64,000 nt of DNA from Mytilus californianus (GCF_021869535.1 NW_026262734.1:40088487-40152486), one strand, 5' to 3'; counted from the stretch's first letter, positions 19,101 to 52,738 are shown. The notes: generated from the letters alone by a model not told the origin. Numbers and translations: made by a program.

Positions 19101-19996
19101 AGAATTCTGAAATGAAGGATCCCTCTTCCATTCGAGTGTCTTAGAAAAACCTTATTGATTATTAGATTGTTGATGCCTAACAAACAGTTACAAATAGTTC
19201 ATCTATAATCAAGACGAGAACAAATTAAGACTAAGTCTAATGTGTAGGTTCGACAAAGTGGGTTTACTGGAATGAATGGTGGCAATTTTGACTGCCACGG
19301 GAAAAATGAGGGCATGTAGCATACCAATTCTTCTCCGACCCGACGGACGTGGCTTTGCATTTATATAAGATACCGCAAATACAAAAATATACGTCCCCCT
19401 TTAGTGTGCGTTTTACTGCTGAATTTGGACAAAACCCATTAGTGTCCATATTTCAATACCCTAGCCAATCATAAAGCCTTAAAAACATAAAAAAGGGAGT
19501 TCGAAGCTAAACTTCTCAAATAATTTTAAAACAAATCTTAGGAGATAAGTAAGGATCAGACCCCAATGGACCCACCACTGCCTTGTATCCCAGCCTCGTA
19601 TTCTTAACTAGCTTAACCACTTACTTTGACGTTTCAACGATTTTCTTTGGCATCATCATAATATTGAACAAAGTAATGATTTTTAAGGAAACTGATACAA
19701 AAAAAAAATGAAACAGAAAGTACCAAAAGGATATTAAAAACTTGTAAGTTGAAGACAAACTGACAATAACCATGGCAAAAAAATTAAACGATAAAACAAC
19801 AAAAGACAAACGACAGCTAGCCCAAAGCACTATGTAAAAAAGTAATTGCTCGAGCCCCACCGAAAAACGAGGGACAGTCCGATTTTTCCGTGGAAGGGTT
19901 AGCAGAACCTGCTCCACATGTGGCAACAATCATGTTGCTCATTACAAGTACAAGTTCGAAGTGAGCTTCACATTGTGTCTAGCGGCTGATAATCTA
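16156..19996. mobile_element. Foldback-type element: ~1.58 kb inverted arms (16156-17736 and 18479-19996) around a ~740-bp core carrying a ~300-bp tandem duplication
   Basis: Arms are reverse complements, e.g. the 81-aa ORF at 16227 (+) and the 102-aa ORF at 19621 (-) are identical. Termini are CGTAGAT(A/T)ATCAGCCGCTAGACACAATGTGAAGC. The subterminal motif TGAGCAACA..GCCACATGTGGAGCAGG.TCTGCT.ACCCTTCC recurs four times. No transposase ORF is present. Confidence 0.8.
17100..17290. repeat. ~32-bp minisatellite (TTTTGTCCAATTTTTCTCTATTCTTTAATTTT) x5 inside the foldback arm (mirror copy at 18900-19090)
   Basis: Direct reading. Part of the GGGTCTGGATGG-TIR MITE family. Confidence 0.8.
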
Positions 19997-21614
19997 CGTT
20001 ACATGCCTTCATCAATAAACTGACCGACTCGATTGTAGGAATTAATCCTTTTGGGACCATACATTGTATGTATAGCAGATGGATAACTCCATAAATTTAA
20101 ACAAAACTCAAATTGTCAAACAACCTCTGTGATTACGGACATTATTTCATATACATACAAAGATTTTAAACGTGTAGAAAGACATATACTCATTTGATTT
20201 TTAACAAATGATGTAGGTTTTTTTTTTAATGTTCAGTTTTGTATACAGCTGTCATTACTTAATCGATTAAGCAGCAAGCGTTCATGTATTCATTTACTTA
20301 GTCATAACAATATTGTATTTCAACGCTCTAACATTTTGATTGTCTCCGAGAACAGGTAATTCAATTATATATTCTTTATATTGTATTTATTCTTGAGATA
20401 ACTTCTCTGATGTGTGCTACATGTAAATCAGTCTTTCAATTTACGGCTGTTTGTGTAATTTTAATAAGAAGCACACCACCTATTTTTGGCCCCCATTGCT
20501 TTCTTCATTAAATTTTTTTACTTTCAAAAATTAAAGGGAAACGGTCAATTTACCGTTATTTACACATCAGACCGTACCGAAACTTTGGATACACCAAACC
20601 AGCTGGTACTTCATATCTGAGAAACAGGCAATGTACATTTTTGTATAATTAAAAAATATCAGTCAAATGGTGTTCTACAAAAATGTATTCTTCATGGTTT
20701 GATATTTACACCTATGCGTAGGAACTATTTTGTTTTAAATATGTACGACTGTTGGTATGTTCTTTTTGACCGGGCCCGAGTTGGTGGTGTAACAGCTTAC
20801 CAAGGAGGTTATAAGACTCCTTGGTCTTACGTAGTCTAGACGAATTATTTTCCATATACATACTGTATTTCCTGCTAATAAGTTATCTAACATATATCGC
20901 GATGTGCCCCGTGGTTGTCTAAATGTTTGTTTTGTTGCTGCAGTCGCATTCTTCAGTGTGATTGTCAGGCTAAATTACAATACATGTTTGATTTCTTTGC
21001 CTGATTTATTTATTGACATTACTCCATGGTTTTGTTCTTCAATTCACAGTTATGGCATGATCGTCAGTTTGCAAAGAACTCCGCTCAAACCGGTGCTAGG
21101 GGCCGTCTTAAACTTGCAGTGAGGTGAGAGTTTTTTGGCTCCTTGTTGAAAAACTCACTGTGACTTTGAGATGTTTCTTTGCTTTTTGTGTTTTTCAAGT
21201 ATTGCGCACATACTGATTTTTTGTCATGGATGGATCCCCTATATTTTTTCTTTTTTATTATGTAGTTTAATTCAGGACATCATAATCTTTTATTAGACCT
21301 TATTTATCCTTTAATGAACAAACATCTAAAATAAAAGCAGCGGTTCCATATTAAACATACCCTTTTTACATGATTGTTGAAAGTTTTGTAAATGAAAAAA
21401 AGGTGATGCATATGTTTAAAAGGTACATTGGACAACTTCTTCCTTTTGACTACGTGTATAAATAAGTACTTTCAAACCGCGCTGAAGTACGTTCACTATT
21501 CACTTTTCGCTATTCAAAATTCATGAAAAGTGAACTGGTTTTTTTTTGCACTTTTCACTATTCAAGTTTATTCAAATTGAATAACTTTAATATCTACTTG
21601 CATATATACAAATT

Positions 21615-21995
21615 AAAAAAAAATGTGGTATGATTGCCAATGAGACAACTCTCTACAAGAGACCAAATGGCACAGACATTAACAGCTACAGGTCACCGTA
21701 CGGCCTTCAACAATGTGCAAAGCCCGTACCGCATAGTCAGCTATTAAAGGCACAGAAATCACAAATGAAAAAAGAATTCAAACGAGAAAACTAACGGCCT
21801 AATTATTGTACAAAAAAAAAGCAAAAAAATAATATGTAACACTCCAAAAAACGACAATGACTTGGGACAGGCACATACATACAGAATGTGGCGGGGTAAC
21901 CATGTTAGCGGGATCCCAACCCTCCCCTAACCTGGGACAGTGGTATAACAGTACAACATAAGAACCAACTCTAATCAAAGTACTGAAGTACTGAA
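21615..21995 (+). mobile_element. SINE/MITE-like interspersed element (~380 bp), family copy 1
   Basis: Shares the head TGTGGTATGATTGCCAATGAGACAAC and the tail GACTTGGGACAGGCACAT...ATGTGGCGGGGT(A/T)AAC...CCTGGGACAGTGGTATAACAG with copies at 29540-29905 (-), 47380-47720 (+), 48040-48320 (-), 49185-49570 (+), 52230-52560 (+) and 53290-53640 (+). Partial copies lie at 56640-56780 (-), 57205-57330 (+) and 63300-63365 (-). Confidence 0.7.
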
Positions 21996-22870
21996 CATCG
22001 GATGACCGCAAGTTCTTGTGGATGGTCACAAGCACTTGTTTCAGATAAAAAATCACATCTCTATACCTGAAAGTGAGGTTAATGTACAGAGATATATTTT
22101 TTTCTGAGACAAGTTCGTGTGTGGATGATGAATACATGACAGGGAATTCAATTATGTAATATATGTTGTTAATTTTGCCATAGCATGTTTATGCTTTTGC
22201 AATAAAGATTCATTCATTCATTCATTCATTCATTCAACCTCACCGTAATAACTATTATATTGTAGCAGGTATATCTTAATATCTAGTATATATGTGTCTG
22301 ATTGTAGTGATACAAATCAGTATACTCTGGTTTACATTATATATTATATATTGTTATATATTATATTATATTATATATATTATATTAATACTTGTATATA
22401 ACAGTTGCATGTATATTTCATTTTCATTCATTTGTATATTATTCTATTCTACTATTCTATTGCAAGTGCATTGTGGACACTCTTCTGTAATAATTCGATT
22501 TTTCTAATAGATTGGATTGAATAGGCATTCATATTTTTCCGCAAAATGTTCTTGAGATATTCTTCCGCATGCGTTAACACATTTCTTCTAAACGAGTGCA
22601 AAGATATTAATGATTTTTTACTTATACAATGTATATATATTTCTAACGACAAAACATTTTCATATTATTCATTTATGTTATAGAATAAAATATTTTTATA
22701 AGTAATCATTAAAGAAATAAATTTATAACAGGCGATAAGGAATGTTATTTTGCACTCGATAATGTCCGCGTATTTATAGATCGGTTACCAGTCAAAAGCG
22801 AAAGTTACGTAAGTAGAAATCTCTGTTGCAACAATATATCGGAATGCCCTCACGGTCATCGCGATGAAAA
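21960..22870 (+). repeat. Dispersed ~700-bp repeat (second copy at 41805-42480 inside intron 1 of the VWA-CBM gene); this copy is expanded by (ATTC)7 at 22211-22238 and (ATATT)-type microsatellites at 22320-22440
   Basis: The pair shares long blocks, e.g. AATCAAAGTACTGAAGTACTGAACATCGGATGACC.CAAGTTCTTG.GGATGGTCA.AAGCACTTGT.TCAGA... and ...GATTGGAT..GA.TAGGCATTCATATTTT.CCGCAA... Confidence 0.75.
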
Positions 22871-23879
22871 AATCAGTTGTAAAAGGCTTAACTCATCAAA
22901 TGGATACAAATAGAAATACATATAACAAAACATAGAGTGAACGTGGCCGGGTACTTGTACATCCCAACAACAAAAAGACACTTAGTGCAGATCTGAGTGT
23001 ACTCTCAATTACTGACAGCTAGTTCAAAGCAAGTAACAACTAATAAAAAAAATACATCTAAGACTAAATTTTCAATCAATGCACATCGAACATGGATTTA
23101 GTGTTAAGATCAGAGAAAAACATGACATTGTGCAATGCCAAGATACAGGAATCGACAGATTGTAGATCAATGGAATTTAATTTATTGATAAAAACAATAT
23201 TAATACCAATATATACAATATTCAAAGAATTAATGACAGCGTTGAATTGGTAACCTTTTAGAATAAGTTTATTTAAAGGATCGATAAGTTGGTTTGTTTT
23301 GTGTAATGAATTGCTATAATTCGATTAAAATACTATCAGCTTAAAACGTTGAGGCCTAGTATTATATAGTATTAAGGTATAAAGAGATAGCATATTTGTT
23401 AGGCCTATCCCTTTTATCTACAATTAATTATTTTTTTACGTAAAATTCCACTTGATCGTGCATCTCAAATCCACTTATGCATATCTAGAAGCTAACGGTA
23501 CAATTCTCGCACTTAGTTTGTTACATATATTTCTAGGGGGTGGGGTCCACTTTTATTCATAAAGCATTAAAGTGAGCATTCGTTTCCGGCATCATTTCTC
23601 TATCGGGATGTCCACACTAATTGAAATCCGCCGACTAAACGGTACACCTTGTGTCAGGGGAGGGCAAAAGACTTATTATGTCTCTAAGTGCCAATAATTC
23701 TTTTCAAAATCTCACTTTCCAATTAAAAATACTCACATATTTACACATTTATATATAAAAAACATAGAAAAATATGAAAAGGCTATAAGAGGTAATATAC
23801 ACAAGTAATGAAAGTTTCGTATTAAACTATGGGTGTTTTCCTCAAGAAAAATCTAATAATAGCACTACCAAATAAGATA

Positions 23880-25490
23880 TCTGTGTTGTAGAACGCCCGA
23901 ATACCAAAAACAACACAAACAACGCTGAAAAAATACAACACAAATCACGTTACGATCGAGTTTTGAACCCCCGAATCCCCTAATTACAGGTATATCCTAT
24001 ATATCATAAGAAAGCTAATAAAAGGAGGAACAAAAGTTTTATAGTGAATATAGGGCACAGATCCGGTTTAAGGGGTAATGAAGCGGCCGAATACCGAAAA
24101 CGGCCGAACCTAAGAAAAAATACAACACAAATCACGTTACGATCGAGTTTTGAACCCCCGAATCCCCTAATTACAGGTATATCATAGATCTATCATAAGA
24201 AAGCTAATAAAATGAGGAACAAAAGCTATATAGTGAATATAGGGCACAGATCCGGTTTAAGGGGTAATGAAGCGGCCAAATACCGATAACGGCCGAACCT
24301 AAGAAATATTACAACACAAATCACGTTTAGATCGAGTTTTGAACCCCCGTTTCCCCTAATTACAGGTATATCCTATATATCATAAGAAAAGTAATAAAAT
24401 GAGGAACAAAAGCTTTATAGTGAATATAGGGCACATATCCGGTTTAAGGGGTAATGAAGCGTCCGAATACCGAAAACGGCCGAACCTAAGAAAAAATACA
24501 ACACAAATAACGTTACGATCGAGTTTTGAACACCCGAATCCCCTAATTACAGGTATATCATAGATATATCATAAGAAAGCTAATAAAATGAGGAACAAAA
24601 GCTTTATACACAGCTACTTTTGCATAGGTACTATTTCTGTACCAAAAATCTGTAGTACTGGAAATCTACTTTTAATTTTCAGTACTATTTTGTTACTTTA
24701 AATTTATTGTAATATTTAGGTACCTGTATTTTACAGTACTTGATTTGCACTTGAAATTTAAGTACTACAGATTTTTGGTTACACCGTTACATTTTCAGCA
24801 TTTTGAAAGTTTGTCTATTTCAAATCTCTTTAAGTTATGATTTTCAAACATATGGAATATTGCGATCACTGTTGGTATTATTTCTGTACCAAAATTTTTA
24901 GTCCAATCAAGTACTGTAAAATACGGGTACCTAAATATTACAATAATTTTAAAGTAAAGAAATAGTACTAAATATTAAAAGTAAATTTCCAGTACTTCAG
25001 ATTTTTAGTACATAAATAGTACCTATGCAAAAGTAGCAGTGTAGTGAATATAGGGCACAGATCCGGTTTAAGGGGTAATGAAGCGGCCGAATACCGAAAA
25101 CGGTCGAACTTAAGAAAAAATTCAACACAAATCACGTTACGATCGAGTTTTGAACCCTCGAATTCCCTAATTACAGGTATATCCTATATATCATAAGAAA
25201 GCTAATAAAATGAGGAACAAAAGCTATATAGTGAATATAGGGCACAGATCCGGCTTAAGGGGTAATGAAGCGGCCGAATACCGAAAACGGCCGAACCTAA
25301 GAAAAAATACAACACAAATCACGTTACGATCGAGTATTGAACCCCCGAATCCCCTTATTACAGGTATATCCTATATATCATAAGAAAGCTAATAAAATGA
25401 GGAACAAAAGCTATAATATAGTGAATATAGGGCACAGATCCGGTTTAAGGGATAATGAAGCGCCCGAATACAAAGAACGGCCGAACCTAT
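23880..25490 (+). repeat. ~185-bp satellite array, plus orientation (~6.5 units, interrupted by a MITE at 24609-25041)
   Basis: The unit ...GAATATAGGGCACAGATCCGGTTTAAGGGGTAATGAAGCGGCCGAATACCGAAAACGGCCGAACCTAAGAAAAAATACAACACAAATCACGTTACGATCGAGTTTTGAACCCCCGAATCCCCTAATTACAGGTATATCCTATATATCATAAGAAAGCTAATAAAATGAGGAACAAAAGCTTTATAGT... recurs with ~184-186 bp period. Confidence 0.9.
24609..25041. mobile_element. 433-bp MITE with ~150-bp terminal inverted arms, inserted into a satellite unit, flanked by TA/TA
   Basis: The satellite consensus ...ctttaTAgtgaatat... is split as ctttaTA[cacagctacttttgcatagg...cctatgcaaaagtagcagtg]TAgtgaat. Arms 24611-24760 and 24890-25040 are reverse complements. A TA target duplication is typical of Tc1/mariner-type (Stowaway-like) MITEs. 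Confidence 0.75.
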
Positions 25491-28400
25491 TCACTATATA
25501 GCTTTTACTCCCCATTTAATAAGCTTTCTTATGATATATAGGATATACCTGTAATTAGAGGATTCAAGGGTGCAAAACTCGATCGTAACGTGCTTGTTGA
25601 AGTATTTTTTCTTAGGTTCGGCCGTTTTCGGTATTCAGGCACTCAATTACCCCTTAAACTGGATCTGTGCACTATATTCACTATATAGGTTTTGTTCCCA
25701 ATTCTAAAAGCGTTCTTGGGATATATAGGATATACCTGTAATTATGGAATTCAAGGGTTCAAATCTCAATCGTAACGTGCTTGTTGAAGTATTTTTCTTA
25801 GGTTCGGTCGTTTTCGGTATTCGGGAGCTCCATTACCCCTTAAACTTGATCTGTGCACTATATTCACTATATAGGTTTTGTTCCCCGTTCTACAAGCTTT
25901 TTTAGAATGTATAGGATATACCTGTAATTAGGGGATTCAAGGGTTCAAATCTCGATCGTAACGTGCTTGTTGAAGTATTTTTTCTTAGGTTTGGCCGTTT
26001 TCGGTACTCGGGCGCTCCATTACCCCTTAAACTGGATCTGTGCACAATATTCACTATATAGGTTTTGTTCCCCATTCTATAAGCTTTCTTAGGATATATA
26101 GGATATACTTGAAATTAGGGTATTTAAGGGTTCAAATCTCGATCGTAACGTGCTTGTTGAAGTATTTTTTTCTTAGGTTCGGTCGTTTTTGTTATTCGGG
26201 CGCTCCATTACCCCTTAAACTGGATCTGTGCACTATATTCACTATATAGGTTTTGTTTCCCATTCTTTAAGCTTTCTTAGGATATATAGGATATACCTGT
26301 AATTAGGGGATTCAAGGGTTCAAATCTCGACCGTAACGTGCTTATTGAAGTATTTTTTCTTAGGTTCGGCCGTTTTCAGTATTCGGGCGCTCCATTACCC
26401 CTTAACATGGATCTGTGCACTATATTCACTATAAAGGTTTTGTTCCCCATTCTACAATCTTTCTTAGGATATATAGGACATACCTGTATTTAGGGGATTC
26501 AAGGGTTCAAATCTCGATCATAACGTGCTTGTTGAAGTATTTTTTCTTAGGTTCGGCCGTTTTCGGTATTCGGGCGCTCCATTACCCCTTAAACTGGATC
26601 TGTCCACTATATTCAGTTTAAAGGTTTTGTTTCCTGTTCTATAAGCTTTCTTAGGATATATAGGATATACCTGTAATTAGGGTATTCAAGGGTTCAAATC
26701 TCGATCTTTGTTAGGCCTATCCCTTTTATCTACAATTAATTATTTTTTTACGTAAAATTCCACTTGATCGTGCATCTCAAATCCACTTATGGATATCTAG
26801 AAGCTTACGGTACAATTGTCGCACTTAGTTTGTTACATATATTTCTAGGGGGTGGGGTCCACTTTTATTCATAAAGCATTAAAGTGAGCATTCGTTTCCG
26901 GCATCATTTCTCTATCGGGATGTCCACACTAATTGAAATCCGCCGACTAAACGGTACACCTTGTGTCAGGGGAGGGCAAAAGACTTATTATGTCTCTAAG
27001 TGCCAATAATTCTTTTCAAAATCTCACTTTCCAATTAAAAATACTCACATATTTACACATTTATATATAAAAAACATAGAAAAATATGAAAAGGCTATAA
27101 GAGGTAATATACACAAGTAATGAAAGTTTCGTATAAAACTATGGGTGTTTTCCTCAAGAAAAATCTAATAATAGCACTAACAAATAAGATATCTGTGTTG
27201 TAGAACGCCCGAATACCAAAAACAACACAAACAACGCTGAAAAAATACAACACAAATCACGTTACGATCGAGTTTTTAACCCCCGAATCCCCTAATTACA
27301 GGTATATCCTATATATCATAAGAAAGCTAATAAAATGAGGAACAAAAGCTTTATAGTGAATATAAGCTTTCTTAGGATATATAGGATATACCTGTAATTA
27401 GGGTATTCAAGGGTTCAAATCTCGATCTTAACGTGCTTGTTGAAGTATTTTTTTCTTAGGTTCGGTCGTTTTCAGTATTCGGGCGCTCCATTACCCCTTA
27501 AACTGGATCTGTGCACTATATTCACTATATAGGTTTTGTTTCCCATTCTATTATCTTTCTTTGGATTTATAGGATATACCTGTAATTGGGGAATTCAAGG
27601 ATTCAAATCGCGATCGTAACGTGCTTGTTGAAGTATTTTTTCTTAATAGGTTCGGCCGTTTTCGGTATTCGGGCGCTCCATTACCCCTGAAACTGGACCT
27701 GTGCACTATATTTACTAATAAGGTTTTAATCCGCACTCTATACGCTTTCTTATGATATATAGGATATACCTGTAATTGGGGGATTCAAGGGTTCAAATCG
27801 AGATCGTAACGTGCTTGTTGAAGTATTTTTTCTTAATAGGCTCGGCCGTTTTCGGTATTCGGGCGCTCCATTTCCCCTTAAACTGGATCTGTGCACTATA
27901 TTCACTATATAGGTTTTGTTCCCCATTCTATAATCTTTCTTAGGATATATGGGATACCTGTAATTAGGGGATTCAAGGGTTCAAATCTCGATCGTTACGT
28001 GCTTGTTGAAGTATTTTTTCTTAGGTTCGGCCGTTTTCGGTACTCGGGCGCTCCATTGATTACCCCTTAAAATGGATCTGTGCACTATATTCAGTATATA
28101 GGTTTTGTTTCCCGTTCTGTAAGCTTTCCTAGGATATATAGGATATACTTGTAATTAGGGTATTTAAGGGTTCAAATCTCGATTGTAACGTGCTTGTTGA
28201 AGTATTTTTTTCTTAGGTTCGGTCGTTTTCAGTATTCGGGCGCTCCATTACCCCTTAAACTGGATCTGTGCACTATATTCACTATAAAGGTTTTGTTCCC
28301 CATTCTATTATCTTTCTCTGGATATATAGGATATAACTGTTATTGGGGGATTCTAGGGTTCAAATCTCGATCGTAACGTGCTTGTTGAAGTATTTTTTCT

Positions 28401-28620
28401 TAGGTTCGGTCGTTTTCGGTATTCGGGCGCTCCATTACCCCTTAAACTGGATCTGTGCACTATATTCACTATATTGGTTTTGTTCCCCATTCTATAAGCT
28501 TTCTTAGGATATATAGGATATACCTGTAATTAGGGGATTCAAGGGTTCAAATTGCGATCGTAACGTGCTTGTTGAAGTATTTTTTCTTAATAGGTTCGGC
28601 CGTTTTCGGTATCCGGGCGC
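25490..28620 (-). repeat. Same ~185-bp satellite in minus orientation (~13 units), interrupted by an inverted segment at 26708-27364
   Basis: Reverse-complement units (GGATCTGTGCACTATATTCACTATATAGG...) with 184-186 bp spacing. The head-to-head junction with the plus array is at ~25489/25490 (ccgaaccta|ttcactatatag). Confidence 0.9.
26708..27364 (+). repeat. Inverted (plus-orientation) copy of ~500 bp of leader plus one satellite unit, embedded in the minus array
   Basis: 26708-27364 is a near-identical direct copy of 23396-24050 (tttgttaggcctatccc ... ctttatagtgaatata). The junctions show short microhomology (tata). Confidence 0.85.
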
Positions 28621-29539
28621 TCCATAACACAGATTTTCTATATGTTAGTGCTTTTTTTAGATTTTTCTTGAGGAAAACACCCCTCGTATTTTATGCGAAA
28701 CTTTCATTACTAGTGAATATTACTTCTTATAGCCTTTTCATATTTTTCTATGTTTTTTTTTATGTTTAAATGTGTAAATATGTGAGTATTTTTAATTGGA
28801 AAATGAGATTTAGAAAAGAATTATTAATATTTGCACTTTGAAAAATAATATGTTTTTTGCCCTCCCCTGACACAATGTGTACCGTTTAGCCGGCGGATTT
28901 CATTTAGTGTGGACATCCCGATATATGAGTGCTGGAAGAAACGAATGCTAACAAGTATCCTATCTCTTTATACCTTAATACTAGATAAAACTAGGCCTCA
29001 ACGTTTCAAGCTGATAGAATTTTAATCGAATTCTAAAAATTATTACACAAAACTTACCAACTTAAATAAACTTATTCTAAAAGGTTACCAATTCAACATT
29101 GTCATTAGATCTTTGAATATTTTTTTTATTGGTATTACTATTGATTTTGTTATCAGTAAATTAAAAGTAAACTAAATATTATTCTTATATACATATACAT
29201 TTTCATGGATCTCCAATCTGTCGATTCCGGTATCTTGGCATTGCACACGGTCATGTTTTTCTCTTACTGTTTATGACGTCTTTACACTAAATCCATGTTG
29301 GATGTGTACTGATTGAAAGTCAGTTTAGTTTTAAATGCATGATTTTTTTATTAGTTGTTATTGGCTTTAAACTAGCTGCCAGTAACTTGCGAGTACTCTC
29401 AGATCTGTACTTAGTGTCATTTTGTTGTTGGGATGTACAAATACCCGGCAACGTTCACTCTATGTTTTTGTTAAATGTATTTCTATGTTTATCCATCTCA
29501 TGAGTTAAGCCTTTTACAACTGATTTTTATAGTTCGTTC

Positions 29540-34540: not shown

Positions 34541-35375
34541 ACAAAGTTATTTTGCATTGATAATCATGCTCTCCGGTTACACACGTACATCTCATGAAGG
34601 CGGTCGTAATGACGGATTTACTAGTAAGTCATCTGTAGCAACAAATGTTCGGTTAGTTAGAAGAACCTCTTCCTTTTGATTATACATCACGGTATGTAGC
34701 TATATAGCTCCTTTAAACTAAGCTTGATGTCGTAAAGAACCGAGATATAATTCATCAACACAGCGTTCTATTAAATAAAGGCAGCAATTATGACTATATA
34801 AAAACAGCTGACAAAAACGAATCTATCTTTTAAATAGACGATACATTACAGTCATGGCGGATTTGATATAATTTTGTAGATGTCATTTGCCATCACAATT
34901 TAATGATAAGTGGTACTAATGTATTCTTTTATAAAATCTTATATCGTTTTCTAAATGTTGATAATGAAGTTTCAAATAATAAGCAATAAGAAATTCACCG
35001 CACTAAGTCGCTCACTTTATTTTCAACAAACTGATAATTAATCAAAAACTCAAGGAGACTAATTAACAGTTATCTGTTTAATGATAATATTTCTACCCAT
35101 AATTATATAGTTGGAAAACGAGACTTCGAATGACCACCTATAGCGCTTTCGGTGTGATCGCCCAGTTATATAGTACATAAACTTGACCCCTGTTGTGTTC
35201 ACGTATCGCTACACTCCCCCTTGGAATGGACTTCTGATAATACTTATATGCTTCAACATATAGTAAGTGATTGATCCTAAAGCTCATTAAGGTTATAGCC
35301 AAAATTGCCTGGAACACTATAGATGATCATCTCGTCTCGTGGTATCATGCGGCTCTCAAATTCAGGATTATGTGA

Positions 35376-37030
35376 AGTAACTTCCCTCTTGGAACACCGG
35401 TTCTTGGAATACAACTTTAAAAAGAGTAACTCGAATAATTCAGCGCCCTCTATCCACTACTGTTTTTGAAGGCAATGGAGTGATCGTAGTGATCGGAATA
35501 TAACGACTGGATTATTCGGGATAAAAAAGAGTGGACCACAGTGTCTCCATTATTACTTTAAAGCGTCATTTCGGTTTAAATTTTATAAAACTATCTTGTG
35601 AAAATTTCGGCAAAATTTGAATTTGGTATTTTCCCTATAAAAACAAAGATGTTATAATGTCATCATTTATTTCAACTACTAACTGAAATTGATTCCTTTT
35701 TTGTCCACCGCGCAACGCATTGCGTGGGACATAGAAATACCGGGCGTCCGTACGTCCTGTCTTGTTAGCGCCATAACGTGTACAATTCTTGTCCGATTTT
35801 TTTGACAATTATATCATAGGTTTATATCAGCAATGTATTGCACAAGTTCGAAAATCAGTGCCGATCATTTATTTTTAAAAGAGTTATGCCCTTGGAAACA
35901 TTAATTGTATGGAAAATTGCATCGTTAGCGCTCTCATTTGTACAATTCTTGCCAGATTTTTATGAAACTTATATCATAGGTTTATATGAGCAATGTCTCG
36001 AACGAGTTTGCAAATCAGTGCCGATCAATTATTCTTAAAAGAGTTATGCCCTTTGGAAACATTAATTATATGGAAAATTGCTTCGTTAGAGCTCTCATTT
36101 GTACAATTCTTGCTAGAATTTTATGAAACTTATATCATAGGTTTATATTAGCAATGTCTTTGACAAGTCCGAAAATCAGTGACGATCAATAATTTCTAAA
36201 AGAGTTATGCCCCTTGGAAATAGTAATTATTTGGAAAATTGCCTTATGAGCTCTCTAACGGTGAACAATTCTTGCCAGATTTTTATGAAATTTATATTTT
36301 AGGTTTATATCATCAATGTCTTTGACGAGTTCAAAAATCAGTGCCGAACAATTAATTTTAAAAGAGTTAGGCCCTTGGAAATAATGATTATATGGAAAAT
36401 TACATTGTCAGCGTTCTCATGTGTACAATTATTGCAAGAATTTTATGAAACTCATATCATAGGTTTATATCAGAAAGTAACTTCCCTCTTGGAACAAAAC
36501 TTTAAAACGAGTAACTCGAATAATTCAGCGACATCTATCCACTACTGTTTCTGGAGATAATGGAGTAATCGTAGTGATCGGAATTTAATGACTGGATTAT
36601 TCGGGTTAATAAAAAAGTGGACCACAGTGTCTCCATTATTACTTTAAAGCGTCATTTGGGAGTAATTTTATAAAACTATTTTGTGAAAATTTCGGCAAAA
36701 TTTGAGTTTGGTATTTTCCCTATAAAAACAAAGATGTTTTAATGTCATCAGTTATTTCAACCACTAACTGAAATTAATTCCTTTTTTGTCCCCCGCGCAA
36801 CGCGTTGCGGGGACATAGAAATACCGGGCGTCCGTCCGGACTTGTTAGCGCTCTCATTTGTACAATTCTTGCCAGATTTTTATGAAACTTATATCATAGG
36901 TTTATATGAGTAATGTCTTGGACGAGTTCGAAAATCAGTGCCGATCAATTATTTTTAAAAGAGTTATGGCCCTTGGAAACATTAATTATATGGAAAATTG
37001 TATCGTTAGCGTTTCTTTTAAAAAAAACTC
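35376..37030. repeat. Composite repeat: [~420-bp leader + ~160-bp tandem array x5] followed by [second leader copy (36473-36845) + 1.3 array units]
   Basis: Leader copies 35376-35795 and 36473-36845 are ~90% identical. Array units are spaced 160-170 bp apart (the ATATCATAGGTTTATAT landmark sits at 35811, 35971, 36132, 36294 and 36464). Each leader ends in a hairpin-forming palindrome, GTCCCCCGCGCAACGCGTTGCGGGGAC at ~36788. Confidence 0.85.
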
Positions 37031-37710
37031 CAATCTTACCTTTGCTCTTCGTTGAGTATTTAATATTTGAAAAAAGGAATAAAAGTGACATTCATTACAA
37101 AAAAAAATATATTGGAAGTAAAGCTGTAAATTGTTTTTGTTTTCAAAAATAATTGAATTTGGGTTCATGTCGTATTGACCTGACTCCAACTCTCAAGTAA
37201 AAGATAAAACAGTCAAGCCTTAAAAGGTAATTTCAAATGGTAACTGTATACAATTTTCTATCTACAACTAAAATCCAACAGTGCAAGAATCTGCACATAA
37301 TAACACATTTTCAAAAAATGTGTTTTAAGATCTTCATTACCTCATTCTATTACAGTTAATTATTTCAAATCAAAAGCAAAAATAGACTCAGCAAAACATA
37401 TTTGGTGACCAGTCAGCGGTCTCGGGTTCACTTATTGCTTTTCGTTTTAAAAAGCAAAAATATAATTGAATTTGGGTTGCTGTCGTATTAACCTGACTCC
37501 AACTCTCATTTTATTCATACTGATATTAGTATACTATAATACAAAGCGTTACATGCCTTCATCAATAAACTGACTGATACGAATTGAAGGAATTATTCCT
37601 TTTGGAACCCTACATTTTATGTATAGCAGATGGACAATTCCGTAAATTTAAACAAAATTTCAATAGTCGAACAACCTCTGTGATTACGGACATTATTTCA
37701 TATACATGTA

Positions 37711-38760
37711 CAGTGATTTTAAACGTGCAGAAAGACATACTCATTTGATTATTGTGACAGATGATGTAGTCTATTTTTTAAATTTTCAGTTTTGTATACA
37801 GCTTTCATTACTTTGTATAAATGAAATTTGTATACAGATGTCATTACTTAAATCGATTAATCAGAAAGCGTTCATGTATTCATTCACTTACTCATAACAA
37901 TATTGTATTTCAACGCTCTAACATTTTGATTGTCTCCGAGAACAGGTAATGCAATTATATATTCTTTTGAACATTTTTTCTGTTTTTGAAATTAGAAAAT
38001 GTAAAGTGTACATATACTTCGAACGCACCGATTATTCTTATTCTGTGTTTGCAAAGGCGGGATGCCTTTTTAACATAATTTTTTCAAATACAGTGATTTT
38101 TAACGTGTAGAAAGACATACTCATTTTTGTAACAGATAATAGTCTTTTTTTTCAATGTTCAATTTTGTATACAGCTGTCATTACTTAAATCGATTAATCA
38201 GCAAGCGTTCATGTATTCATTTACTTGCTCATAACAATACTGTATTTCAACGCTCTAACATTTTGATTGTCTCCGAGAACAGGTAATGCAATTATATATT
38301 CTTTTGAACATTTTTTCTGTTTTTGAAATTAGAAAATGTAAAGTGTACATATATTTCGAACGCACCGATTATTCTTATTTTGTGTTTGCAAAGGCGGATG
38401 CCTTTTCAACATAATTTTTTCAAGTACAGTGATTTTAAACGTGTAGAAAGACATGCTCATTTTTGTAACAGATGATGTAGTTTTTTTTCTTTCAATGTTC
38501 AGTTTTGCATACAGCTGTCATTACCTAAATCGATTAGTCAGCAATTGTTCATGTATTCATTTACTTGATCATAACAATATTGTCTTTGAACGCTCTAACA
38601 TGTTGATTGTCTCCGAGAACAGGTAATGCAATTATATGTTCTTTCGAACATTTTTTTTCAAATTAGAAAATTTAAAGTGTACATATCCTTCGAATGCACC
38701 GATCATTATTATTCTGTGTTTGCAAAGGCGGGATGCCTTCTTAACATAATGTTTTTTGTC
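37711..38760. repeat. Tandem array, 3 units of ~336-380 bp, preceded by leader 37541-37710; a solo leader+unit copy lies at 19997-20400
   Basis: Unit start CAGTGATTTTAAACGTG(C/T)AGAAAGACAT at 37711, 38091 and 38427. The leader GTTACATGCCTTCATCAATAAACTGAC... is shared by 19997 and 37547. Confidence 0.85.
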
Positions 38761-41556
38761 AAACTGCTTTTTTTTTATCAAAGTTTAAAGTTGTGTGTCC
38801 CGAAAATACCCCTCCTCAAAAAAGGATTAAAGGTCTGTACCTAATATATTATGTTTGCGTTACATTCTGCTTCTGTTGAATGTGACGGGTGTTTGAGCAT
38901 ACTGTCTTTAAATTTGAAATCGATGTTCATTTTCTATAAATGTTTATAAAATATTGAAATATTCAAAGCAATTATGTTTTTCTATCAATAGGCATAGACT
39001 GCCTTAGCCGTGTTTGGCACAACTTCGAAGTTTTCAGTTTTGGTTGCTCTTCAAATTCGGCATTTCAACTGATCGTAATGAAGCTATGTGGATAAATTTA
39101 TCAGTTTTCAAGAGCTAAATTGACAGCGCGTCATCCCTACGTCATCCCTACGATGGCTTCCATTTTCAAGATTAAAAAAATAGGTGGCGTTATGGGGAAG
39201 ATAATTTTGTTGAAGTAGAATCCTTACTGATTCTTGTTTACAGAAATATAAACACACTACACACTAAGATCTGATACTGTTCATATGTGCAATATGACAA
39301 CGTAAACATTCTTGTCTAAATTGATTTTGGAAATACGAATTGCTCTTGATTTGGATTAATATGTAACGATAAATGATAATTTTCAATTAAATCGGTGAGA
39401 TCATTAACTCCACAAAATTTCAATACACACAATTTCATTTAATGTTCATCTTAAAGGCTATCTTTTTAGGATGTGTTTTATTTAATCGTAGTCTTTCAGA
39501 TACATGTATCATGTTAATCTATTTTTCGATTGAGCTAATAGAAAATATGCAGCTTGACACTTTTCAAATGAGAATTTTTCTTTCTGCAAGAATACATGAA
39601 GTGCAGGCTAAAAGTTTACAGGCATATATGGTTGTTATAATGTAAATTATTTCCCAACATTTAATAGGATTTTTTCAGAGTAAACAAAGGACAAACAAAT
39701 TCAATACCTAATTATGTTCAGCTACACATCTTTATTAAATTAATTTGGTTTCAAGATAAATTGTCATACAGTTACATCTGACTAGTTCCTGAGTATTATT
39801 GTGTTAATTGCCTTCATAATTAAAAGAATTTCTACCAATGGTCTAAATTTATTTAAGGCTAGAAATGTTTCGAACAAACTAACTGCTCCAAATATTCTGA
39901 TTAAGAATTTATGCCGAATTTTTTATCCCAAGATCCCACAAAATATCGACCTCCACTCTCCCCATTTTTGGTTGAAATTTAAAATAAATTATGTCACGTT
40001 GCAATATGATAATTGTACGAGGGCTTGTCACTAGTGGGGAACGTGTCCATGTCTCCTTACTTGCATGCATTCGTCTATAGGTTATATTCATATCATCAGG
40101 TGCAAAAATATCTACCACAATGAAAAGTTATAAAAACAGGAAATGTAATAAGTCAATTTAGTACGATTCTTAATGTCACAAATAACTATATCTATTTCCT
40201 AGACTGTGTAATATTTCGGTCAAGGATTGGTCTTCTCATCATAGGTAACGGCGTTAGGCTTTTTTTTTTATGTCTAGGCCTTTTACTCGCAGTTTTTAAG
40301 TAAGCTGGTCAAGTTATTACATAAAAAAACTCCTTTTTAACATGTGATCTATCTCTGCTTCTCCGCATTGACTTTCCTGAAACAAAAATGCAAGAATATC
40401 TCCTTTTGGCAAAATGTACTGAAATATGTATTTCGCTTTCGCAGACAGCAAATCATATAAAAATGTGAATAAATTAATTTTATCATTAAACGGTCATAAA
40501 TTATTGATCTGGTCATTGCCTATATATAAAATAAGTGACAAAATGACCATTATGATAAATCAATGAGGTCATTATAGTGTTAATTAACATTTGAAGACAA
40601 CACGATCTGACCAATTTTTACGGTTAACTGAACGAGACAATACTTTTCATTGTGTCAGTTTTCTTACTTTCCAAAAAGAAAACGCCACAATTCCAACCTG
40701 GAAAAGTTAACTTTTGAGTTTTTATATAAAAAAGAAGATTTTGTCTATTAAGGAAAATTAATAATAATAATAATTAAACCTGTTATTCTTCGAAAGGTAA
40801 GTTTTATAATTCAAATTAATATCTACTTGTATTTTTTACATTTTACAGCATATTTCTGTACTTCTTTTTATATTGAGTCTTTTAATTAATTCCTTACGTC
40901 GATTTTATTGACGCCATTTTATATTATACTAGTACAGTTGGTTTAATTCTTAAACATTAAGTGTAATAACAGTAAGTATAACTATTCTCTGAAAGTCAGA
41001 CAAATATTTAACCTTTATTTAAAACAAATAAACAAAGCTGGATTTTTTTGGTACAAAAGTGTCTCTGAACACGTGACTTTTAAAACGGCGAAGGATGTTC
41101 TGATTGTATGGTCATGATTCAACAAATGTATGTAAAAGACAAGATCAAGCCATAAAAAGTGCTTTTCACGTAACTAAATGTCACAAATCTACTTTTTATT
41201 AGCATACAATACACAAATAACAAAAACAGTGTTGCAAATTAATTGTTTTATTGCCATATATGAGGATCTGGATGGGGTTTCTTCATTTCTGTATTCTTTA
41301 ATTGCTAATGCCATTTTTTTCTATTCTTTAATTTTTTTTTTGTATAAAATTCTCCTTTCTCTATACTTGAACACCACATTATTTTCTTTTCTTTTTGCCT
41401 ATTTTTCTCTAAATTCTTAATTTTTGGCCCTTTGATTCTCTATGTCTGCCCATTATTCTCTTTTCTGTAAAACCCATACAAACCCTCATATATTTTGTCA
41501 AATCATATCAACCTGACCATCTTAGATAACATATAATATTTATTTACAGAGTCAAG

Positions 41557-41614: not shown

Positions 41615-43382
41615 GTAAGTGTTAAATTATTATACTTTAAAATTTTGCATGATTTGCTTCCACAACAACCAAACGAAAGGAAAGGAAAAATATTATCATT
41701 ATGGTTTGAAATTAAGGTGGTACCCAACACCTTGACTAATATTCATTTGGCTCGTTTAATTTTCATAAAATTTTGACAAAATGTTTACTTTGACCCTTTG
41801 ACAAAAATATAATCAAAGTACTGAAGTACTGAACATCGGATGACCACAAGTTCTTGAGGATGGTCAAAAGCACTTGTCTCAGAAAAAAACAACATATCTC
41901 TTTACCTGAAACTGAGGTTAATGTACAGAGATATATTTTTTTCTGAGACAAGTTCGTGCGTGGATGATGAATAAATTACAGGAAATTCAACTTCACCGTA
42001 ATAACTATTATATTGTAGTGATACAAATCAGTATACATGGTGGACACTTTTCTGTAAAAATTCGATTTTTCTAAGATTGGATACGAGTAGGCATTCATAT
42101 TTTCCCGCAATAACAATTACAGAGTTACCGGTCCTCGCAAAAAGTTCTCTGAGATATTCTTCCGCATGCTTTAACACAATTTTTCGGTACGTCTGCATTG
42201 ATATTATCAATGATTTTTTACTTATATATATATATCTAACTACAAAACATTTTCATATTATTAATTTATGTTGTAAACAAAAATATTTTTATCAGTATTC
42301 ATTGAAGAGATGTATTTATATCAAACGATAAGGAATGTTATTTTGCATTCGTTTATGTGCGCATATTTATCATGTTTATAGATCGGTTACAAACCCAAAA
42401 CTAATTTACATAATGGAAATCTAGGCGATAGCAATACATCTGAATGACCCCAAGGTCATCTCGATGTAAAAATTTCAAAAAATTTGAACCAACCACTTTA
42501 TCAGAAAAATTTCATTGGTTATATAGCAGTTTGACAAATACTAATTTTGATCATTGAGAAGCTTAATATTTCCTACAACAATACAACGTGATTAAAACGT
42601 TTAGCTGATTTTTACAGAGTTATCTCCCTGTAGTGTTAGGTACCACCTTAAATTAGACAAACGTATAAAACCAGAAGCATTTGTATTATCTTATCATGGT
42701 TTTTATATGGTATTTATGAGTTTATATACACGAAAACTCTTGCAATTGTGTAGTTTACAGAAAATAAGTTACCTGTTATAACGTCATCTGTCATAAAAAC
42801 CCTTTTCATGATGTCACATGTGGGCAAGAGAAACCAGATAACTGCATGGACATTTGACGACATAGCTGAAAACATGGAAATCCTAAATTGAACATAAAAT
42901 GAAAGAAAACCTGATCGACAAAAGCATGAATCGGTCATGAATAAGACAACACAAACACAAATATGCCATTGAGACAGAAACCCCAAAATACGATATCATT
43001 TTACAGAGTAAATAAAAGATGTCTAACTAGATAACCTTGACGTACTCCAATTCATTGGTTACAACATAGTACAATGCTGTATTATACTCGTAATTGGTAT
43101 TGTAAAAGATACAAGTTGACAAAGCCTTTATAAGTCAAATATTTCAAACTTAGCAAAATTGGTCGCATTATTTCAAGAACAGGATGAAATTTGACATTAT
43201 ATTAAAATATGAGCTCTGCCTTCAGACTTTAATAACCAATTTCATAATCAGCTTTATATTGTAAAATATCAAGTGTTTAAATTTAATCATATGCAATTGT
43301 CGTATATTCTTCCCTGACATTTCAATGAAAATAACACGTTTTACCTTTGGTGGCTCCGAAGCTCTATTCTAATTAACCTTCA

Positions 43383-43442: not shown

Positions 43443-43705
43443 AGAAGGATGTATAAGTACTTAAATAGATGAGAAGCTATATAACCAAAACGGGCTTCAA
43501 AAGAATAGCTAAATCCTTCTCTGGTCAATTAGAAGGAGTTTGAACCTAAGTTTCTTAATAATTTCTACATTTATCAAAGGAGAATGTAAGAAAGTACTGT
43601 TATAAATCATGTCAGTACCGAAGTCAAAAAGTATCGTCGCCAGAAGTCAATTTTAGATGCTGGAAATTTAATTAACATCCCATATTGCTATATTTCTATT
43701 TGTAG

Positions 43706-44305
43706 CCGATTGTGGAGGGAAGGCTGATATAATATTTGCTATTCCTGGGAACAATGAAATTCCTGGAGAAGAATTCTTTCCGTTTGAAAGATTCTTAACA
43801 ATGCTTGTAGATTATTTTAAAATCGACAGAGACAATGTAAATATTGGTCTTATATTATATGGAAGAGAACCCGTGGCAATCAGTTGGCCGCAACCAATGA
43901 AAGACCAAACACAAACCAATACGAGAGTAAGCCTACTTGCGGAAAGAGAATTATACAATGGTAAACTTAAAGGCAGAGCAGATGTAAAGGGGGCACTTAA
44001 TTTAATGAGACAAATGTTCAGAAATCCATCAGGTTATCATCATCTGCAGTTATCTCGACCTGATACCAAACAGATTGGAGTGATGTTCACGCATGGTTCA
44101 GTTCAGACAAATATCAGTCAAGATGTGATCACAGCTGCAAACCAGTTTAAGGAAGCAGGGATCGAAATGTATTCAGTAGGAAACATGCCAAATGGTGAAT
44201 GGTATTCAGAGATAGCCTCTCATAAATGTAAAATTTTATCCGTGGAAAGTTACTCTGAGGGTTTAAAAGGCCTACTTCCTTATATAGGGAGCAGTATATG
44301 TACAG
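43706..44305 (+). CDS. Exon 2: von Willebrand factor type A domain (ADCGGKADIIFAIPGNNEIPGEEFFPFERFLTMLVDYFKIDRDNVNIGLILYGREPVAIS...VMFTHGSVQTNISQDVITAANQFKEAGIEMYSVGNMPNGEWYSEIAS...)
   Basis: Uninterrupted 200-codon reading frame bounded by acceptor tatttgtag| and donor G|gttagt. It has the VWA hallmark layout: a beta-strand entering the DxSxS position, an LYG segment, a TDG-like segment and a final amphipathic helix. Confidence 0.85.
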
Positions 44306-44959
44306 GTTAGTTTTATATATATACCCATATAACAACAATCAACATACTTTTCGTACTATAATCTTTAAAGCCTAATTCAAGCATCTGATACAACTCCCTT
44401 TTGTTTTTTGCTATGAATTAGTATCTTAATCTTTTTTCGTTCATCATCGGAACTTTCCATCCGATTGGTTCATTGTGTTTGATGTTTTTCTTTTAATCCA
44501 CATAGTTCCTGATAATTTATATGCAGCAAATTCATAAACAAAAACTAAATTTCAAAATAAATACACCTTGAAGTCTATTATGTATGTAATTCCCTTGTTT
44601 TACTTGAAATGACATGCTTCATACCAAACAACGAAAATACGACACAAAGTAGAACAACGGTCTTCAAAATAATACATGTATATATGAACTAACGAGTGAA
44701 CAACGCAAAGCCTACCAAAAGCCGGTGTGATCTCATTTTATCCGAAAGTGTATGCAGATTTTGCTCCACATTTGACAACCGTTGTTTTTGCTCATAGTAA
44801 AATGAATATAAAACATACAATTGTTTCATATAAAAATCTGTACATAGGAAAATTCCCCCCTTTAAATCAGACTGAAAAAAAGGTGAATTGCATATATACT
44901 TGATTCCAATTGATACATTTTTCTTTATTCCATTTACTGATGCATTATTGTCCTTTCAG

Positions 44960-49705: not shown

Positions 49706-52620
49706 GATTATCTTCCTTTGTCATCAATGACCAAATATCTATTTTATTGAAAGGTTCACCTTTTGTTAAATTTAGATAAAATGGTAATTACAATAGTATG
49801 TGGGACAATCAGGAAAGTGAAAGTTGGACAAAGGCAGATATTTTAAATGTTGGATGATATCAAATTCATTAAGTCTAGTGGTTATATAGAAACATTTCCG
49901 TCAGTTAAATAGAGCGAGGATGCTTTTATAAAATATAATGATTTTGCCAGCGTTTTATCAGATTAAGAAGTATGCATAAATACATATCTCACAATGTTAT
50001 CATAATTCATATGAATTTAAAAAAAAAGAAAGATACGTTTCACTAAATCACCCAAAGCACCATTTGAAAGAGAGTAATACATCATACAAAAAACAGATTA
50101 AAACAGTTCATCATACATGTACTTAGTACAGTTAGCTATAGAAGAACAGTGCAGCACAATACATAAATGTAACAATGTTTGATTAATCACCACACATCTA
50201 TTAAAAAAGCACAAAAAATTATAGTTCATTACAAATCACAGTACAGAACACAAGGATCAACAGTTTTCCTTGGTGTTGCAGAAACGCATTGCAGACAGAA
50301 TACTAGTACTTGAAAATACTTAGCTCAACACTAATTCCGAAGTCTGGGTTTGACTTGTTTAACGAATATAAATGAACCCTTACATCTCCTGTACTTATTA
50401 AATGATTGTAGAATCGTATCTCTGTCAGATGATTCAGTAAAAAAAATATATAAGATTGGGATTTTACGTTGAATCACATTCAGCATCCTCTTGGGTGTTT
50501 CTCGGAGTCTCGGTCCAGTAATAGCTCAGTAGTTGTCGACTGAATTCCACACAAAAAGAGGTAATACAATCTAAGATTTGAGCAATGGTATTTGCTGTAT
50601 CTTAATGTTATATGTCATGAAAGCTTGATGCTATGGCGGTAAAGAAAGAATTGTAGTCGTGCGTTCTAGATGATAAATCACAGGCATCTTTCAACATTAT
50701 TTATTGAGGCCGTTGTGGTTTAATCTTGCGCTCGTATAGATCGTTTTGGGCAGTTATATAACAATTATATTTATATTAATTCATATTGATATAATTGTAG
50801 TGATGCTTTAATTATCGAGTTGATAGAATTAAAATGAAAGAATGCAGATTCAAATTCTTTTACATATTACATCAGAAATTGTATGTAGACAATTTTTTTT
50901 TTTTAAATTATAAACATAAAAATACAAAGAATCATGATGATATATGGATTGACATTTTTTTAACAACCAACCTGGTGATGTGTTAATTTATTGCATAACT
51001 CCTTCAAAATGTTGTGGAACAATCATACATTTCCTTGTGGGACAATCGAAAATAAGGTAAATTGTTCCTGAATCTTTTTCATACACGGATCTATTTCTAA
51101 CAGTCCTCCAATATTTCCTAAAATTCACAGCGTCACAGTTTCATTACTTGAAATTGTAACAGCCAATAATAAACGTCCAAATATAGCACAGAATTGCAAT
51201 TATGAAGTTTTTATGATCTTTATGTCATATCCTGTTTGTCTGGCGTTTCATGGTCAAATCTCACTTTATATGTTTCATTGAAAATGTTTTTCGGCGCTAC
51301 ACATTGCTATAGAGGCAGTAATGAAACAATATTGCATTTTATATTTTCATTGTGCATATTCTAGGGGGATTACTGATATCATCTTGATATCATCTTGATG
51401 TTTTATAAGATCTCTGAAACAAATAAGTAAGAGTTGTAGTTCGTTGGTAGATATCTATCAAATAGTTTCTTGTGACAAAATGTTGCATTTTCATGGCTTT
51501 TATTAACTAAAAACAATTTCAACAAATGGTGAAATTAAGACAACCATTGTTTATTGTGATTAATTATAATTGAATTCTAAGAATCGTCATATCCTGACAT
51601 TAAATATAAGTTTGAAACACAAAATGAAATAAATCCCACAACGGAGATGAAAAGAAATAAAAGAATATGTTGATAATGCGTCAAGGAGACAACCCCTATT
51701 TGTTATTCAAACATTTCAAACACATTTTCAATTTGATTATTAACTAACTGTATTTGCAAAGTAACTTATTTCAGTCTGACTTTCCTGAATTGATTTCCTA
51801 TCCTTTTGATTTCTTCTTCAGCATTGAAATTTCATTTTGATATTCATTTATACATGTATTTTCTGTATTCACTAGACCAGTTTTGACACTTCCAAACCTC
51901 TTCAAATACTTGTATACGGTTTTACTTTTACATTAAAAAAGATGCCATTTTGACATAATTTTCCTTTCGATATTCGATCACCGATTCAAAAATAAATTTC
52001 GCTTACATGCTTACATTATGTACAACATAACCGTGATACAGATCTCAACATTTTTCTGTTTTAAAATTATGTACAGTTTGTTCTTGACATGGCACAACAT
52101 TGTGTCTCCCCCTTCTATTGATGACATTACTGTGTGAAATCATCTATGAAATATTACAACCGATATTAGAATGTTATTTCATATCAGCAGACGAAGTACT
52201 TTCAGCCTGCTTTTGTGACTTCGATATGAAATTAGGGATATATGTAGTGATTGATAACGAGACAGCTATCCAACATAAACTAACGATCAAAGATGTAAAC
52301 AACTACAGGTCACCATACGTCCTTCAACAACGAACAAAAAACCTGTACAATAATAAAAAGTAAGCTATACGGAAGATTCAAGGATAACACAATGTGAAAT
52401 ATTTCAAAATAGAAAACTAACAGATTATCTTATGTTGGTAAACTTAAATGAAAACAGTTGTGACAGACGGCAACTGACGACACCCACTTTGCTAAATGCT
52501 CTGGGTTTTGGACAGGTACATATAGAAAGCAGGAAGGGTAAACATGGTTATGAGTGGTCATCCTTTCGATAACAATGGACATTGGTGTAGAAGCATAAAG
52601 TCAAATCGTTTTCTTAACAA

Positions 52621-52668
52621 AACAAAAAAATACAAAACAAAACAAAACAAAACAAAACAAAACAAAAC

Positions 52669-52699
<31 letters not shown>

Positions 52700-52738
52700 C
52701 AAAACAAAACAAAACAAAACAAAACAAAACAAAACCAA
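52621..52738. repeat. (AAAAC)n microsatellite, ~23 units
   Basis: Direct reading. Confidence 0.95.

Follow-up and report, generated by a model that had tools for sequence, protein, structure and literature searches.

A doubled 161-bp repeat module in Mytilus californianus with the left-flank architecture of non-autonomous Helentrons

The repeat at positions 35375-37012 of the window, by which we mean the whole 64-kb stretch of DNA that was analysed, consists of two leaders, each followed by an array of 161-bp monomers. The explanation that we favour, and consider moderately probable as a whole, is that it represents the left flank and central repeats of a HINE, incomplete at its 3′ side, that was duplicated locally in tandem. 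We are fairly confident that the module itself is of the HINE type, i.e. a non-autonomous Helentron of the kind also described as pearl, DTC84, MgE or DINE-1-like. The GC hairpin near the end of each leader is probably the 5′ subterminal repeat together with its internal complement, and not a Helitron 3′ hairpin, because the order of the modules matches that of published HINE and DINE-1-like elements. Since the 3′ features of such elements were tested for and are absent, the two copies are filed here as truncated derivatives of relatives with the full HINE architecture, rather than as intact HINEs. The locus is a degenerate further example of a kind of element that is well described in bivalves.

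Anatomy of the doubled repeat

The two leaders (35375-35763 and 36475-36843) form a colinear alignment with about 92% identity and open with the same 21-mer, AAGTAACTTCCCTCTTGGAAC, which gives a unit period of 1100 bp. Leader 1 carries 15 extra nucleotides at 35397-35411. Each leader can be divided into a short left-flank module at its 3′ end and the remaining first 310 bp or so, which we call X; identities and coordinates of all parts are given in Table 1. The array behind leader 1 was described by Tandem Repeats Finder as having a 161-bp period, 4.4 copies and 83% matches. Its monomers begin at 35764 (m1), 35924 (m2), 36085 (m3) and 36246 (m4), share 82-87% mutual identity, and are followed by a partial m5 that stops at monomer phase 70 with the bases TATATCAG. 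Leader 2 abuts this array, the one base between them (36474, an A) being assignable to neither side. The single full monomer of array 2 is 93.8% identical to m2 and 88.8% identical to m1.

The initial annotation had read the locus as a leader, five array copies, a second leader and 1.3 array copies, ending at 37030. This layout stands, while the counts become 4.4 and 1.05 and the end moves to 37012. It had also placed a 27-nt palindrome near the end of each leader; a hairpin is indeed present there in both, but the quoted sequence has a single exact occurrence, in leader 2 (36788-36814), and its counterpart in leader 1 (35703-35730) is a 28-nt variant with three changes. Both hairpins are more stable than shuffled versions of themselves (z about -2.9, with 2 of 200 shuffles as good).

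No copy of the leader or of the monomer was found in the 64-kb window beyond 35375-37012. Within 35300-37100, no stop-to-stop frame exceeds 85 aa, and the one of this length spans the repeats, indicating that coding capacity is absent, and no ORF longer than 169 aa was found in the window as a whole. The window is AT-rich (G+C about 33%) and eukaryotic, with almost no long ORFs and many interspersed tandem arrays.

Table 1. Parts of the doubled repeat and of its 3′ surroundings (positions in the window)
Feature	Position	Strand	Remarks
X1, first 322 nt of leader 1	35375..35696	+	92.8% identical to X2; start without T-run or inverted repeat
Left-flank module, copy 1	35697..35763	+	profile of related loci matches 35697-35758, E 5e-8; fold z -2.95
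T6 run, copy 1	35697-35702	+	
Hairpin, copy 1	35703-35730	+	GTCCACCGCGCAACGCATTGCGTGGGAC
Spacer, copy 1	35731-35745	+	ATAGAAATACCGGGC
Microsatellite, copy 1	35746-35763	+	GTCCGTACGTCCTGTCTT
Array 1	35764..36473	+	4.44 copies of the 161-bp monomer; m1-m4 full, m5 70 nt
X2, first 307 nt of leader 2	36475..36781	+	directly abuts incomplete array 1; holds a 7-bp stem-loop
Left-flank module, copy 2	36782..36843	+	profile of related loci matches 36782-36843, E 1.2e-8; fold z -2.93
T6 run, copy 2	36782-36787	+	
Hairpin, copy 2	36788-36814	+	left arm GTCCCCCGCGCAA, putative 5′ subTIR; right arm TTGCGGGGAC, its IR
Spacer, copy 2	36815-36829	+	
Microsatellite, copy 2	36830-36843	+	GTCCGTCCGGACTT
Array 2	36844..37012	+	exactly one full monomer (36844-37004) plus GTTAGCGT; end of the feature
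Weak inverted match AAAAAAGGAATAAA	37070..37083	-	to TTAATTCCTTTTTT, just 5′ of the hairpin; candidate degenerate 3′ inverted repeat, not significant

Related arrays and the two ends of the element

Relatives of the repeat were retrieved by using the 85-aa open frame across the array as a protein query, and then by a second search with an alignment of the matches. The matches were short spurious ORFs called on other arrays, and examination of their contigs yielded ten independent loci once contigs of the same locus had been merged (L005, L006, L007, L008 with L009-L011, L012, L013, L014, L015 with L016-L018, L019 and L020). Each of these loci holds 2-5 monomers that are 72-85% identical to those of the window. 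Run SRR29152234 is a Mytilus galloprovincialis gill metagenome (PMC11729891), and the other runs have neighbouring accession numbers; ENA contigs carry loci identical to those of the M. galloprovincialis gill runs.

Five of the loci (L005, L007, L008, L019 and L020) carry, ahead of the array, a GTCCCC…GGGGAY hairpin, then an ATAGAAAYAC spacer and then a (GTCY)n tract, with no change of orientation or of monomer phase among them. The hairpin of the related loci often lies directly after a T-run, and that of L019, which is homologous to the hairpins of the window, folds with a z of -5.4. The microsatellite part of the left flank is kept in L012 and L013, and the junction between module and array, …CTT/GTTAGCG, is common to the window and the related loci. 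A profile made from the flanks of the five loci only, with the window left out, had just two matches in the window, one in each leader and both running from the T-run to the array start (Table 1). The conserved portion of each leader is its last 62-67 bp, in which the T6 run and the GC hairpin are followed by 15 bp of spacer and then by a short microsatellite of the (GTCY)n type. At least two GTCY tetramers are found upstream of 8 of 12 arrays, compared to a background in which at least three occur in only 1.3% of 90-nt windows. The tracts of the window, GTCCGTACGTCCTGTC in copy 1 and GTCCGTCCGG in copy 2, are short and eroded (2-4 units); the microsatellite at the same position is longer in L005, L013, L019 and L020.

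These comparisons bear on several proposals of the initial annotation. It had supposed that the whole 370-390 bp leader travels with the array, and had named arrays lying mostly without leaders as the pattern that would speak against this. At the ten arrays from related contigs, which do not come from the source genome, the full leader is mostly missing, and no more than its final 62-67 bp is conserved upstream. The idea of a satellite carried by a rolling-circle-type element with a conserved hairpin piece is retained; the full leader as the travelling unit is not. The further proposal of three analogous modules in the window was not supported for the left-flank signature, whose profile recognises the two sites of this repeat only; the 64-kb window contains no other (GTCY)n tract, and no left-flank-like site lies beside its other arrays.

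Pattern scans with a 23-mer from the hairpin flank and with a degenerate left-flank pattern gave no matches in metagenome contigs, and scans of viral contigs and of bacterial and archaeal genomes also gave none. A 56-aa frame that reaches from the end of X through the hairpin into the monomer returned no candidates in a protein-style search. No match was obtained in an Rfam scan of 34.5-39.5 kb (E <= 1), and the leader thus gives no tRNA-, 5S- or 7SL-like SINE signal. No occurrence of the monomer k-mers was found in the papers searched; a link of the 161-bp monomer to the Mytilus ApaI type-2 satellite, whose repeat length we take to be about 161 bp, is possible.

Published elements of the HINE type have a characteristic order of parts: a 5′ subTIR, an IR 1-22 bp away, a GTCY/GTCC microsatellite, central repeats of 140-180 bp and a 3′ subTIR with a palindrome. 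The elements end in T-runs and insert at TT (PMC4067079, PMC7492417, PMC3879986). The ACGG microsatellite and the AA "TSD" of older papers are GTCC and TT on the other strand. In the window, the 13-nt GTCCCCCGCGCAA stands directly after the T6 run, where homology to the relatives begins, and TTGCGGGGAC follows 4 nt after this left arm and forms the hairpin with it, within the 1-22 bp expected of the internal IR. A short (GTCY)n microsatellite then ends the left flank and is followed by the central repeats, which at 161 bp and 4.4 or 1.05 copies agree with the HINE pattern of about 140-180 bp in few copies with fixed orientation and phase. Like HINEs, the locus has no coding capacity. The T6 run at the boundary, where we infer the 5′ terminus to lie, is the one observation that fits the insertion of HINEs into TT or T-rich sites, which occurs without target-site duplication.

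Among the named systems, Cg_HINE of Crassostrea gigas (Vojvoda Zeljko et al. 2020, PMC7492417) is like the window in module order: it has a 5′ subTIR with its IR a few nucleotides away, a short and eroded GTCY/GTCC microsatellite, satellite-like repeats of 140-180 bp in fixed orientation and usually 2-5 copies, T-rich boundaries, no coding capacity and, commonly, truncated copies. Short interspersed arrays are described as typical of HINE central repeats (PMC7492417). The window departs from Cg_HINE in that its copies lack a right flank (3′ subTIR and palindrome), their microsatellite directly abuts the array with no variable spacer, and about 310 bp of extra DNA (X) is duplicated along with the element. 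The HINE and DINE-1-like elements of Thomas, Vadnagara and Pritham 2014 (PMC4067079) have a 12-15-bp subTIR close to a T-run terminus, at a distance of a few nucleotides, for which the window has a putative counterpart, and share with the window an IR lying 3-22 bp further downstream, a microsatellite and tandem repeats in the centre; their 3′ subTIR and short 3′ palindrome are seen in the related loci and missing in the window. The window can also be likened, by description, to the "MITEs" pearl (C. virginica), DTC84 (Donax trunculus) and MgE (Mytilus galloprovincialis). According to PMC3879986 (where Gaffney 2003 and Kourtidis 2006 are cited), a microsatellite of the ACGG (= GTCC) type is linked in these, at a fixed phase, to core repeats of about 160 bp that number about 5 at most; they also have a flank with short inverted repeats, an AA/TT boundary and bivalve hosts. 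MgE is reported in the same paper without a microsatellite, unlike the window.

The 3′ side can be recognised in the relatives. A right flank of about 100-150 bp is common to L005, L006, L007 and L015; those of L005 and L007 align at E 4e-7, and a right-flank profile matches L006 at E 1e-14. A GGGGACATTTGAAC-like sequence in this flank repeats the right arm of the left-flank hairpin in direct orientation and is therefore complementary to the 5′ arm, which makes it the HINE 3′ subTIR, a feature that lies about 38-60 bp from the 3′ end in HINEs. Short 3′ palindromes are present in L007 (CCATGGTTTACCATGG) and L012 (ATGCGCTATGAGCGCAT). The window has neither a 3′ subTIR nor a palindrome 8-35 bp from a 3′ terminus: the 13-nt left arm has no 3′ partner within it, no match to a hairpin arm or to GGGGACATTTGAAC lies downstream of either array, two right-flank profiles gave no nhmmer match in the window, even when the search was restricted to the 400 nt downstream, and no palindrome or stem-loop was identified after 37012. 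Since no right-flank feature follows either array, while relatives have one, both copies are, to judge from their sequence, 3′-incomplete and presumably immobile remnants.

Two candidates for a 3′ end were rejected. The flank after array 2 resembled a diverged right flank by eye, but its Smith-Waterman scores were not above the null and the two nhmmer profiles were negative. The pair TTAATTCCTTTTTT and AAAAAAGGAATAAA was considered as a true terminal inverted repeat, and gave 3 matches beyond the two leader copies versus 1.2 expected in total. A separate observation concerns L006, where positions 700-900 contain a right flank (740-833), then a 5′-truncated monomer (phase about 102) and then more monomers, indicating that array-flank-array composites occur in relatives too.

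By analogy with the family literature, a Helentron Rep/helicase-endonuclease supplied in trans would recognise the two ends of a complete element, one consisting of the 5′ subterminal inverted repeat and its nearby internal complement, which together would be the hairpin seen here, and the other of the matching 3′ subterminal repeat and a stem-loop. The enzyme would copy the element by rolling-circle transposition into T-rich sites, and the length of the internal array would then change by in-register unequal exchange.

A different role for the hairpin had been proposed in the initial annotation, which saw in the GC palindrome, as a hypothesis, the subterminal hairpin of a rolling-circle (Helitron-like) element. 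A canonical Helitron(-like) element with this palindrome as its 3′ terminator would account for a strong GC hairpin within AT-rich DNA and for a feature without coding capacity; we nevertheless consider it extremely unlikely. Helitrons are marked by a 5′-TC, a 3′-CTRR, insertion between A and T, and a palindrome of 16-20 nt that precedes the 3′ end by about 11 nt (PMC4067079), and inspection of the copy termini revealed none of these. The units start with AAGTAAC after G or A, the reverse strand ends with AAGTTACTT, the flanks are not A/T, and the hairpin has no repeat boundary at a distance of about 11 nt: on the + strand it precedes spacer, microsatellite and array, and on the - strand about 310 nt separate it from the end of the unit. 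Its position at the 5′ homology boundary, after the T-run and ahead of microsatellite and array, is instead the arrangement of a 5′ subTIR and its IR (PMC4067079, PMC7492417).

The X segment and the origin of the doubling

Homologs of X were found neither at the ten related arrays nor elsewhere in the window, using BLAST, nhmmer and Smith-Waterman alignment against an empirical null, and none of the ORF matches from the protein-style search reached into the X-encoded part of the query. By eye, left-flank homology seemed to continue into the last tens of nucleotides of X in comparison with L019; this was not above chance. These alignments indicate that X is outside the family-level element. They covered related contigs; in the source genome, X may belong to the element as a part specific to this lineage.

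Near its end, X holds a stem-loop, TCAGTTA-N10-TAACTGA, with a 7-bp stem (35663-35686 and 36748-36771), located 10 nt before the T6 run. This is the position expected of a HINE 3′ stem-loop if another element had its 3′ end where X ends; a supporting 3′ subTIR or homolog of this stem-loop was not found.

We give about an even chance to local segmental duplication as the cause of the doubling. In the simplest history, one local tandem duplication of 1.1 kb would have taken about 0.3 kb of upstream host DNA (X) and the 5′ part of the element as far as monomer 4.44, and the downstream array would then have contracted in register to one monomer. Divergence between the copies is alike in X, the left flank and the first monomer (about 7-11%), which fits a single duplication event. 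Points against this model are that it needs a second event, the contraction of array 2, and that the duplication junction has no microhomology above chance. The DNA upstream of leader 1 was also considered as a decayed monomer, or as sharing microhomology with the junction, and was rejected as scoring no better than 51% of random segments.

The main alternative makes X, the hairpin module and the array a chimeric mobile unit of this species, the doubling being a rolling-circle head-to-tail tandem with a 3′-truncated inner copy. In its favour, both units begin at the same nucleotide, and the upstream unit is cut within its array and directly abuts the 5′ end of the next. With no more than two copies, identical leader starts would be as likely at a duplication junction as at a true element terminus. 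Whole Helitrons can repeat in tandem, often with 3′-truncated inner copies, according to the passages on such tandems in PMC7492417 (where Pritham and Feschotte 2007 and Xiong et al. 2016 are cited) and PMC4067079, and the locus shares with them its head-to-tail units and the truncation of the upstream unit at the 3′ side. Unlike those arrays, it has two units only, its last unit is also without a recognisable 3′ end, and the start of the unit has no Helitron or Helentron terminal features: X begins without a T-run, an inverted repeat or subTIR, or a 5′-TC, between flanks (G/A and A/A) that are not T-rich. Moreover, X occurs only twice in 64 kb and is missing at 10 of 10 related arrays, whose homology begins at the T-run and hairpin. 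On balance, we consider a chimeric unit unlikely. More doubtful still is a new composite in which the 5′ module of a HINE would have fused to an unrelated 0.3-kb sequence, giving it a non-canonical 5′ end, and spread as rolling-circle concatemers with 3′-truncated inner copies. If true, a transposon would in this way give rise directly to a higher-order satellite with a 1.1-kb period.

The presence of just two units, at one locus, is what might be seen if no mobile element had taken part in the doubling, the repeat being either an ordinary satellite with a higher-order repeat or a false tandem created in assembly by placing two divergent alleles in series. Bivalve genomes are highly heterozygous, which counts for the latter. 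We consider both very improbable, since the left-flank module and monomers recur at many unlinked related loci as short interspersed arrays, suggesting that the module itself is dispersed, and since the two copies, with about 7% divergence, indels and arrays of unequal length, are better explained by an old, real duplication than by a collapse of alleles.

Neighbouring repeats and significance of the locus

The window is densely filled with interspersed repeats. A large complex of about 187-bp arrays occupies 22868-29528, lying on one strand at 23.9-25.5 kb and on the other at 25.5-26.7 and 27.4-28.6 kb. Inverted flanks (22868-23402 vs 29528-28948, 79%) enclose it, and within it lies a direct repeat of 661 bp (23392-24052 = 26704-27364) with 98.6% identity; the complex has no match to the left-flank profile and no adjoining GTCY tract. 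Dispersed repeats (21475-21974 vs 30035-29527, 21972-22151 vs 41810-41990 and 22469-22873 vs 42036-42473; 74-92% identical) belong to families that border the 187-bp complex and are found again at 41.8-42.5 kb and 47-49.6 kb.

A third module, at 37547-38756, consists of a leader and 2.8 copies of a 337-bp repeat, and a solo leader with one partial unit of the same module is found at 19997-20377 (82-90% identical). Its leader contains a near-perfect palindrome, AAGGAATTATTCCTT, at about 37588-37602, and beyond the array (38817-38831) lies an inverted match resembling TTTAATCCTTTTTTG, an arrangement that may be of the palindromic-subTIR kind. Between the 161-bp repeat and this module lies a 51-nt direct repeat (37145-37195 / 37458-37508; 92% identical, 313 bp apart). 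The solo leader starts (19997) where the right arm of a 1.6-kb inverted repeat ends (16155-17737 / 18477-20001); the arms of the latter are 91% identical and about 740 bp apart, and their spacer contains a 260-bp direct repeat (17886-18148 / 18202-18453). An (AACAA)n microsatellite of about 24 units is present at 52616-52735. The region 43550-44313 has a 169-aa open frame with a von Willebrand factor A domain that is probably an exon. Its best relatives, with 82% protein and 83.6% DNA identity, are in contigs from Mytilus gill metagenomes, and the DNA similarity reaches about 250 nt upstream of the ORF. On this similarity, the window would belong to a mytilid-like bivalve or be a paralogous region in Mytilus itself.

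For annotation, the hairpin of the doubled repeat marks the probable 5′ end of a HINE-type element, of which both copies here appear dead and 3′-incomplete, and the X segment of about 310 bp should not enter a consensus without genome-wide support. A local duplication of the module together with its flank can start a repeat of longer period. Nothing in the locus is at odds with current understanding; it adds an example of Helentron-derived elements scattering short satellite-like arrays through bivalve genomes.
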